From Eledone cirrhosa (Eukaryota): a stretch of 64,000 nucleotides of DNA. A program made the position numbers and the translations under genes. A model generated the notes under the pieces. That model had not been told where the DNA came from and did not search any database. It saw nothing but the letters and a program-made list of their open reading frames with translations. Positions 11,861 through 13,899 of this stretch are shown piece after piece (within the stretch, counting starts at the first letter, position 1; the number at the start of each line of letters is the position of its first letter). The DNA lies in NCBI GenBank assembly GCA_964016885.1, contig OZ024742.1, forward strand, positions 278,318,001 through 278,382,000. The letters run 5' to 3'.

Positions 11861-11948
11861 ATATATATATATATATATATATATATATATATATATAGAA
11901 TAAGGAAAAGCGAAGTAGTTTCAGATGTTCAAGTCTTTTAATAATAAT

Positions 11949-12024
11949 GCTGTGATATATATATTTCAATGACGACACTGGCCACACTGTTCTGTATGCG
12001 AGTGCCGCGACATCGTCAGACAGC
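11949..12024 (-). ncRNA. Type I hammerhead ribozyme (inverted copy)
   Basis: Reverse complement of 12075-12148 with intact CTGACGA, GAAA and TC; one extra TA in loop 3. Confidence 0.8.
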
Positions 12025-12074
12025 TTGTTACATAATAAGGTTATGTTTCCGTTATGTAACCTTATTATGTAACA

Positions 12075-12148
12075 GCTGTCTGACGATGTCGCGACACTCG
12101 CACACAGAACAGTGTGGCTAGTGTCGTCATTGAAATATATATCACAGC
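12075..12148 (+). ncRNA. Type I hammerhead ribozyme
   Basis: Stem I gctgt/acagc; core CTGACGA at 12080-12086; stem II gcgacact..cacac/gtgtg..agtgtcgt; GAAA-tatata-TC. Predicted cleavage after 12143. Confidence 0.85.
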
Positions 12149-12291
12149 ATTATTGTTAAAAGACTTGAACATCTGAAACTACTTCGCTTTTCCTTATTCG
12201 ATATTTACTCCGTCACTCCTATGTGGAAAAAGTACGTTGAGTGCTTGAATTGAATTGCATCAATATTTACCCTAAGTATATATATATATAT

Positions 12292-12828
12292 ATAAATGGA
12301 ATAGAATGAAACAAATTTCATTTCTCACTCTTAGTACGGCAGTTACTTAAATGTAAGTATGCATGTATGTATACGTACATACATATATGTATACAGACGT
12401 ACAGTAGTATGCATACATATACATACATGCACACATACATATATGCAAGTATCGGTTTACCGAACATTTATTATAATGCTCGTTTGTTTGTAAACAAACA
12501 AACAGCCCGAATCACGCCGTACAGTGTTCAGGCAACCACGTCACCTCTTTGTTCAACACTGACACAGAAACGATGTACTAGTTTCAAGCTTATTAGCTAT
12601 TAGCTATCGTCAGCTGACGATAGCTAATAAGCTTGCAACTAGTACATCGTTCCTGTGTCAGTGTTGAACAAAGAGGTGACGTGGTTGCCTAAACACTGTA
12701 CGGCGTGATTCGGGCTGTTGATACGTGCATATATGTATGTGTGCATGTATGTGTGCATGTATGTATATGTATGCATAGTACTGTACGTCTGTATACATAT
12801 ATGTATGTACGTATACATACATGCATAC
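12292..12828 (-). mobile_element. Fold-back copy of the 434-bp HHR family
   Basis: 12357-12613 and 12614-12828 are inverted about cgtcag|ctgacg; sequence matches 19191-19700. The fold-back axis falls at the start of the HHR core. Confidence 0.88.
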
Positions 12829-13028
12829 TATATATATATATATATATATATATATATATATATATATATATATATATATATATACATATATACATATATA
12901 TATATATATATATATATATATATATAATATATATATATATATATATATATATATATATATATATATATATATATATATATATATATATAATATATAAGAT
13001 CAAAAGATGGTTATAAGAGTTCCATGTA

Positions 13029-13095
13029 TTTTATTATGCGCATTTCAAAAACAAATATCATAATGCAATAACATTTGTGTTTTCATCAGATAAAA
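13029..13095 (-). ncRNA. Type I hammerhead ribozyme (inverted copy)
   Basis: Reverse complement of 13226-13290 with a 6-bp stem I ttttat/ataaaa and intact core. Confidence 0.8.
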
Positions 13096-13225
13096 TAGGA
13101 AGACATGATATGAAGGTTAAAAAGCACTTGTGAATAGTGCAGTTTTAAATCAACATATATGATATGTTGATTTAAAACTGCACTATTCACAAGTGCTTTT
13201 TAACCTTAATATCATGTCTTCCTAT

Positions 13226-13290
13226 TTTATCTGATGAAAACGCAAATGTTATTGCATGATGATATTTGTTTTTGAAATGCGCATAATAAA
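13226..13290 (+). ncRNA. Type I hammerhead ribozyme
   Basis: Stem I tttat/ataaa; CTGATGA at 13231-13237; AU-rich stem II caaatgttat/gatatttg; GAAA-tgcgca-TA. Confidence 0.8.
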
Positions 13291-13899
13291 TTACATGGAA
13301 CTCTTTTAACCATCCTTTGATCTTATATATTATTTATACTCTAGTCCTACAAACTGTAGAGTGCTTCTTATCCGATATCTGCATTGCTTTATTGTACTAC
13401 AATAAAACTCACCTCCTACATATATATATATATATATATATATATATATATATATAATATATATATATATATATATATATATATATATATATATATATAT
13501 ATATATATATATATATATATATATATATATATATATATATATATACATATATATATATACATATATATATCTATCTATATATATATCTATATATATATCT
13601 ATATATATATATATATATATTTATATACACACACACACACACACACACACACATATATATATTTATATATATATATATATATATATATATACACATATGG
13701 TAAGCGCACTTGTGGCTGAGGGTACTGCTGTATTCCATCTCTTCAGACGGAAAAGTAACACTGTTAGTGTTAGCGTTTCGGTCTATTCCACCGCGACACC
13801 AGAGCTATTCAGAGTCAGTCTTTGATGTAGGCGACGAAACTCCTACAGAACACCACAATGGTAGATGTGTCTGATGTTGTTACTCCGTACATTTCAACT

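Follow-up and report, generated by a model that had tools for sequence, protein, structure and literature searches.

The 64-kb stretch of DNA analysed here (the window) contains three adjacent palindromes, A, B and C, which fold back around axes near 12050, at 12613/12614 and near 13160, respectively, as an earlier note on this DNA had described, and which are separated from one another by (TA)n alone. Palindrome A comprises a tail-less inverted arm on the minus strand (11898-12051; element positions -227 to -68, counted from the 3' end), a 5-nt junction filler (12052-12056) and a tail-bearing arm on the plus strand (12057-12275; element -219 to 0), with a complete hammerhead motif in each arm (cores at 12019 and 12080; predicted cut of the latter after 12143). 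The arm alignment (11898-12043 against 12057-12199) has 139 identities, 4 mismatches and 3 gap positions, and the body extends past it through the tail (about 12200-12275), making the tail-bearing arm longer by about 76 nt. In palindrome B, the left arm is the long one, by about 60 nt, so that its body, running from 12613 to 12294, lies on the minus strand, opposite in orientation to A and C. This tail-bearing arm (12294-12613; tail about 12294-12356), a piece of a 446-nt tandem unit, is cut at the hammerhead core and has no stem I; through a 2-nt self-complementary overlap it turns into the tail-less arm (12614-12828, plus strand), in which the core is present, GAAA is changed to GCAA and stem I is likewise missing, the aligned arms (12357-12600 and 12620-12828) differing by a net gap of 35 nt. 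Palindrome C consists of a tail-less arm (12982-13158, minus strand; element -257 to -81; complete hammerhead motif, core 13089), a 3-nt filler (13159-13161), whose last base is a G where the element has C and is a candidate cap-derived base, and a tail-bearing arm (13162-13419, plus strand; element -257 to 0; core 13231, with the cut predicted after 13285 and one mismatch weakening stem I), which represents the 3' pseudo-LTR (pLTR) of a Hydra-type Penelope-like element (PLE). The 177-nt arms of C (12982-13158 and 13162-13338), with 3 nt between them, are 96% complementary, and the tail (13339-13419) extends the second arm by 81 nt. All three junctions are symmetric to within 10 nt. One (TA)n target tract borders A on the left (11860-11897), and more tracts are found at about 12276-12294, at 12829-12981 and from 13420 onwards.

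It is hardly credible that the palindromes are fold-back artefacts of assembly or library preparation. Among the public read records examined for A none spans its axis, a non-probative point, but the arms differ at 4-7 sites each, their ends are fixed and biological, and the genome holds hundreds to thousands of similar insertions with other junctions. As the earlier note had argued, the arm mismatches, which are independent, speak against an artefact, and so do the many insertions joined differently.

The same cluster contains an extra family B tail stub (11517-11591, plus strand; 89% identity over 75 nt) and, between two (TA)n tracts, a fragment of a fourth high-copy family (11660-11858), for which 1,739 first-look candidates were obtained; its genome copies are 96-98% alike and TA-flanked, with a tandem period of about 647 nt in two loci (L257/L258), and no hammerhead of its own was found with the type I descriptor in the 7 loci scanned. 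A further palindrome at 11228-11377, with 75-nt arms matching at 72/75 positions, is centred on (TA)n between two SINE-like copies, and an old repeat with 34 other matches at 68-81% identity adjoins a (TA)n tract at 13697-13900. Another family B copy (19189-19565, minus strand) carries a complete minimal hammerhead with its core at 19439.

Hammerheads were sought with our own type I descriptor, which combines the core motifs with stems I-III, and 30 Markov-simulated windows served as the null. The descriptor returned five motifs in the window (12080+, 12019-, 13231+, 13089- and 19439-) and a single one in all the simulated windows together, bearing out the proposal that two of the palindromes, namely A and C, carry a complete type I hammerhead on both arms. 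The broader claim of a core on both arms of all three stands only in part: B does fold back at the core, but neither of its arms passes the descriptor, because stem I is without its 5' strand in both, GAAA is replaced by GCAA (12636) in the right one, and loop II of the left one contains a 7-nt duplication. A search against Rfam, a resource the earlier note had pointed to, did not recover the motifs: the search of the window gave no match at the gathering score, and the 104 weak matches (E ≤ 10) in 11400-13500 included no hammerhead family, only hairpin-driven miRNA-type models. The hammerhead call is therefore based on the descriptor together with family-wide conservation, the descriptor being positive in 22/30, 17/30 and 28/30 of the fetched copies of A, B and C, respectively. 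All three hammerheads are minimal with a palindromic stem III, and in A and B the base of stem II is formed by a U-U pair; according to PMC7229834, amphibian motifs with these two features cleave better as dimers.

To place the families, the genome (3.0 Gb, 1,796 contigs) was searched, yielding 2002, 2238 and 1046 first-look candidates for A, B and C, respectively, of which 40 per family were scored and the best-scoring 30 loci fetched. The best copies of each family are 92-98% alike, too similar for stem covariation to be informative, and the three families are unrelated (best cross-family BLAST E-value of 0.005 over 28 nt). The two origins named in the earlier note, truncated Penelope elements and non-autonomous hammerhead RNAs, are both represented here, next to each other: C is an autonomous PLE that has been truncated, and A and B are fragments of tandemly arranged, non-coding units with a hammerhead. 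Long C copies extend upstream and, after 1.1 kb, reach the end of an ORF, read as overlapping frames of 585 and 374 aa from two copies, with reverse transcriptase (RT) motifs and a GIY-YIG-type end, so that family C has the single-ORF composition of EN+ PLEs, a PLE-type RT with a C-terminal GIY-YIG endonuclease, as far as motifs read in these two copies go. The protein has 70 homologues at E ≤ 1e-10, whose names point to an octopod as the probable source of the genome and one of which shows a weak GIY-YIG match (E = 0.012, below the cut-off); searches of Pfam, NCBIfam and PDB sequences with the C ORFs gave no RT or endonuclease match. Exact pLTR-ORF junctions number 216 genome-wide, and a partial pLTR precedes the ORF in 30/30 fetched copies. 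The Hydra clade, which includes Hydra-1_Obim, is defined by DKT, a CxCX5C linker, CxxC and CxH, RWK and a length generally under 3 kb (PMC8557442, section 11). Judged by eye, family C matches it in DKT, the linker, CxxC and CxH, with CCHH absent, and also in (TA)n insertion and a canonical hammerhead, but it has RWI instead of RWK (one N-terminus read) and a unit of about 3.5 kb (L121), for which reason we file it as Hydra-type, an assignment by motifs rather than by a tree. The Neptune clade, considered earlier for family C, was dropped for Hydra after reading the motifs. The C unit further includes an Asn-rich insert and a 3' UTR of 1.1 kb.

The B unit measures about 446 nt and occurs in tandem or partial tandem copies (L033/L040, L036, L046), with a longest ATG ORF of 75 aa, and the A unit, 1,272 nt long and in tandem in L013, L023 and L024, has a longest ATG ORF of 55 aa. 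Both are therefore non-coding tandem units with one type I hammerhead, as in retrozymes, B lying inside and A outside the retrozyme unit range of 150-450 bp. A and B appear to behave like non-autonomous retrozymes and likely borrow a PLE enzyme; because A, B and C share no clear common sequence, it is the insertion layout from which PLE mobilization of A and B is deduced. Our literature search found no description of the three families, and Hydra-1_Obim is a different family by its hammerhead. In several A copies (L128, L140, L006, L030, L124, L141), one and the same ATT-rich site (-126/-110) is occupied by a SINE-like insert, apparently with a duplication of 16-19 nt, which reflects either a composite subfamily carried along or an insertion hotspot. 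A cluster of A 5' ends at -126, near the ribozyme cut (-132), was considered as evidence of cleavage and rejected, since it coincides in some copies with the edge of this insert.

Each stub shows the published layout of PLE insertions, with head-to-head arms, a one-sided tail of 60-80 nt and (TA)n on both sides; the inverted 5' copy and the tail at one end only are found in A, B and C alike. The tail-bearing arms run to the fixed 3' end of the element, and the end of the tail-less arm is also fixed in A (-68 from the 3' end) and C (-81), where (TA)n follows, while in B it varies within a TA/CA-rich stretch. Exact-pattern counts over the genome gave 688 tail-less ends followed by TA and 1,114 read-throughs of the same site for A, and 2,880 tail-less ends for C, with zero matches for the reversed-pattern controls. 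TA targeting, as the earlier note had surmised, thus holds for the insertions. The clustering is ordinary as well: when the four families and foreign hammerheads were counted as neighbours, a foreign family or foreign hammerhead was present within 1.1-1.5 kb of 9/30 A and 17/70 C position-ordered loci (26/100 together). Neighbouring TA tracts contain numerous other hammerhead families, likewise with a palindromic stem III (L254, L255, L132, L160, L181, L226 and others). The three stubs likely entered the same (TA)n tract in successive insertions, and the locus, whose layout is published and not special to it, is a cluster of ordinary PLE-type stubs, that is, mobile-element debris, with the stubs most likely inert.

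A different possibility is that the triple forms a functional unit, serving as a source of dsRNA or siRNA or moving as a co-mobile cassette. The ribozymes face outward, so that in a read-through RNA of either direction the antisense arm would precede a single sense ribozyme. The full hairpins have predicted folding energies of -251 to -365 kcal/mol on either strand, compared with -10 to -27 kcal/mol for single A and C arms, a gap from which the hairpin is predicted to win rather than to compete with the ribozyme fold, and long dsRNA is a plausible product of any read-through transcripts. The predicted stability of the hairpins on both strands favours a functional role, as do the antisense small RNAs yielded by Adineta PLE copies, described in PMC3846280. 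However, no other case of the A-B-C order was seen among the 90 fetched loci, mixed neighbours are common, and the arms have mutated independently, with two of the changes falling in ribozyme elements, which makes a functional unit very improbable.

We consider it probable that A, B and C are 5'-truncated stubs of unrelated hammerhead families, inserted serially into (TA)n, each built by reverse-transcribing one sense RNA from two separate primings. In the best-fitting scheme that we can infer, the PLE endonuclease would cut both strands of the self-complementary (TA)n, and each DNA end would prime on the element RNA, one at the tail end and the other 60-80 nt upstream. After early termination of both cDNAs, end-joining would connect them head to head, leaving microhomology, fillers or short fold-back patches at the junction. 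According to PMC11167929, an Anolis PLE protein cuts and extends both strands in vitro, starting at two tail-bounding sites. The earlier note had instead proposed that the inverted arm arises when a single cDNA snaps back and primes itself, and a related form of self-priming, on antisense RNA, is the reading given in PMC3846280. Several observations point in this direction: the three junctions in the window are nearly symmetric, B turns at a 2-nt self-complementary overlap, and true short fold-back patches are present at the junctions of L090 and L178. Arm lengths were therefore compared in 70 position-ordered C loci (the first 72 among the matches listed, minus two already in the score-ranked set), 38 of which have adjacent arms. 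Fifteen of these 38 are near-symmetric (arms within 10 nt of each other), again as self-priming would give, but in 16 the tail-less arm exceeds the tail-bearing arm on the 5' side by more than 10 nt, and the reverse is seen in 7; the largest excess of a tail-less arm was 1,180 nt. A copy cannot exceed its template, and in these insertions the shorter arm carries the tail that is missing from the longer one, which, together with the fixed end of the tail-less arm, argues against the arms having arisen by snap-back of a single cDNA. Arm lengths do not strictly decide against self-priming on antisense RNA, but the sharp sense 5' end of C with its extra G, described below, points to a sense template.

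Subfamily alleles were compared in arm pairs of A (29) and C (37), some of which came from the score-ranked loci. They agree within insertions at 209/261 (A) and 180/220 (C) comparisons, as against 44% and 49% between insertions, which establishes that both arms of an insertion share one source, a result that fits self-priming and two primings alike. Among the C pairs, 25/32 are identical at 6-7 diagnostic sites, in keeping with self-priming, but 3/32 differ at 2-3 of 7 such sites, which speaks against it; 11/21 A pairs are identical at the diagnostic sites and 10 differ at a single site. In 10/38 C insertions the two arms stop together at the 5' hotspot around -257, above the expectation for independent arms (Fisher's exact test, p = 0.001), although fold-back would also give such an excess. 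Taken together, self-priming of either kind appears unlikely, and what survives of the snap-back idea is the short fold-back patches at some junctions (L090, L178 and perhaps the B duplication). Under two primings, the near-perfect palindrome of C follows because its cDNAs tend to terminate at a single base, -257, which likely corresponds to the capped 5' end of a transcript driven by the pLTR, and the near-symmetry of A and B probably reflects chance combined with the selection made in the earlier note. We found no statement of a two-ended priming model for PLEs in the accessible literature, in which subscription papers are thinly covered, so this is not proof of novelty.

The -257 end recurs throughout family C. 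Arms beginning at -260 to -252 make up 22/70 of the tail-less and 13/40 of the tail-bearing arms, and both arms of the window copy begin at -257. Genome-wide, 4,329 C arms have a non-native base before the -257 site and 2,343 read through it in the exact native context, both figures being lower bounds from exact patterns that are not strictly comparable, with palindromic junctions counted twice. No such hotspot was seen in A among 30 position-ordered loci. The -257 end has been made repeatedly, as 38 such arms share six haplotypes with long arms, and we accordingly rejected the idea that the -257 stubs descend from one short master copy. In the first 100 junctions among the matches listed, the base preceding -257, counted by eye, is G in 42, T in 41 and A in 17; G exceeds the 17% expected from composition (p = 4e-9) and, less strongly, one third (p = 0.04), although many of these Gs are also compatible with microhomology. 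Arms starting at -257, often after an extra G, suggest run-off at a capped RNA end. The sequence at the site, TTCATA, is presumably a weak match to the initiator consensus BBCABW. The promoter of D. virilis Penelope lies in the pLTR (PMC2377424), and an extra G marks capped, full-length L1 insertions (PMC11702581). A capped run-off end of a Penelope pLTR transcript was not evident, by title or abstract, in the literature searched.

The -257 end might instead be a favoured end-joining point, since the site lies in the 6-nt palindrome CATATG, whose ATAT provides microhomology to the TA target; this would be compatible with two-ended priming. At least 6/70 sampled tail-less arms indeed join directly to (TA)n there, and the frequency of T in the preceding position accords with it. 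However, both arms end at the exact base despite intervening fillers (L156, L234, L242 and the window copy), and the excess of G over composition would not be expected. Moreover, ORF-preceding C pLTRs hold the same site, yet 0/30 begin at -257, compared with the 13/40 tail-bearing arms (Fisher's exact test, p = 0.0003; two pairs of the 30 are the same insertion). On balance, end-joining preference is a possible but doubtful explanation of the -257 end. The 0/30 result, which speaks against pure microhomology, is also not predicted by a simple start-site model and suggests, speculatively, a second template class for long C copies. We therefore tentatively propose, as a scenario that may well prove wrong, that the thousands of short palindromic C stubs are run-off products of capped, ribozyme-uncut RNA primed from both DNA ends at sites 81 nt apart, and that the ORF-containing copies derive from a template without that 5' end, such as a hammerhead-cut circle or a long tandem RNA. 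If so, short palindromic stubs would be the PLE counterpart of strong-stop DNA, and the hammerhead would remove the capped leader, letting reverse transcription continue round into the ORF. C 5' ends at the ribozyme cut site (-137 to -128) show no clear excess (2/70 tail-less and 3/40 tail-bearing arms). A mini-unit of about 476 nt in L210 (the pLTR end plus 342 nt of the ORF side), with its two junctions at -133 and -134, the position of the ribozyme cut site, resembles a copy of an RNA that had been cut and rejoined. Finally, at least 6/100 C junctions among the matches listed have the initial 8 nt of the arm duplicated in tandem (for example, G000:C1:123807504), as if the enzyme had jumped back on reaching the RNA end.

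The significance of these observations lies in mechanism rather than in the locus itself, which gives entry to a large natural data set on the tandem and inverted insertion of PLEs and the role of their hammerheads, both called unresolved in PMC8557442. In this data set, arm lengths favour two primings over self-priming, the fixed -257 end with its extra G predicts a capped RNA start, and non-coding hammerhead units of 446 and 1,272 nt leave PLE-type footprints, consistent with the proposed dependence of animal retrozymes on PLEs.

Insertions of EN+ PLEs are described as containing an inverted 5'-truncated copy and having a tail on just one side (Craig et al. 2021, PMC8557442, Fig. 2 legend; PMC3846280). 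The stubs resemble them in the head-to-head inverted copy, one-sided tail, pLTR hammerhead, microsatellite target and junction palindromes, and differ from them in their longer tails (about 60-81 nt versus 30-40 nt), in the shortness of both arms, in the abutting of three families and in the one dominant 5' end of family C. The C parent is similar to Hydra-clade PLEs in having the RT followed by a C-terminal endonuclease, in its DKT, CxCX5C and CxxC/CxH motifs, compared by eye, motif by motif, with the Hydra proteins of PMC8557442, and in its (TA)n target and hammerhead; it is set apart from them by RWI (one copy), the length of the unit, the Asn-rich insert, the long 3' UTR and a hammerhead different from the one listed for Hydra-1_Obim. 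With animal non-LTR retrozymes, A and B share non-coding tandem units with one minimal type I hammerhead and, with axolotl HHR_Amex2 in particular, a short palindromic stem III and the basal U-U pair of stem II (Cervera and de la Pena 2020, PMC7229834). Such non-coding units have been argued to derive from PLE pLTRs (bioRxiv 10.64898/2026.07.22.740005). Relative to the animal retrozymes described there, A is far longer, and A and B are distinguished by PLE-type inverted arms and tails at insertion.

In L1 twin priming, the two cDNAs cover different parts of the RNA, whereas the cDNAs here would overlap, giving a palindrome. The likeness to L1 twin priming lies in the priming by both target ends, as we infer it here, in junction microhomology and in the extra G at a fixed 5' end (PMC11702581).
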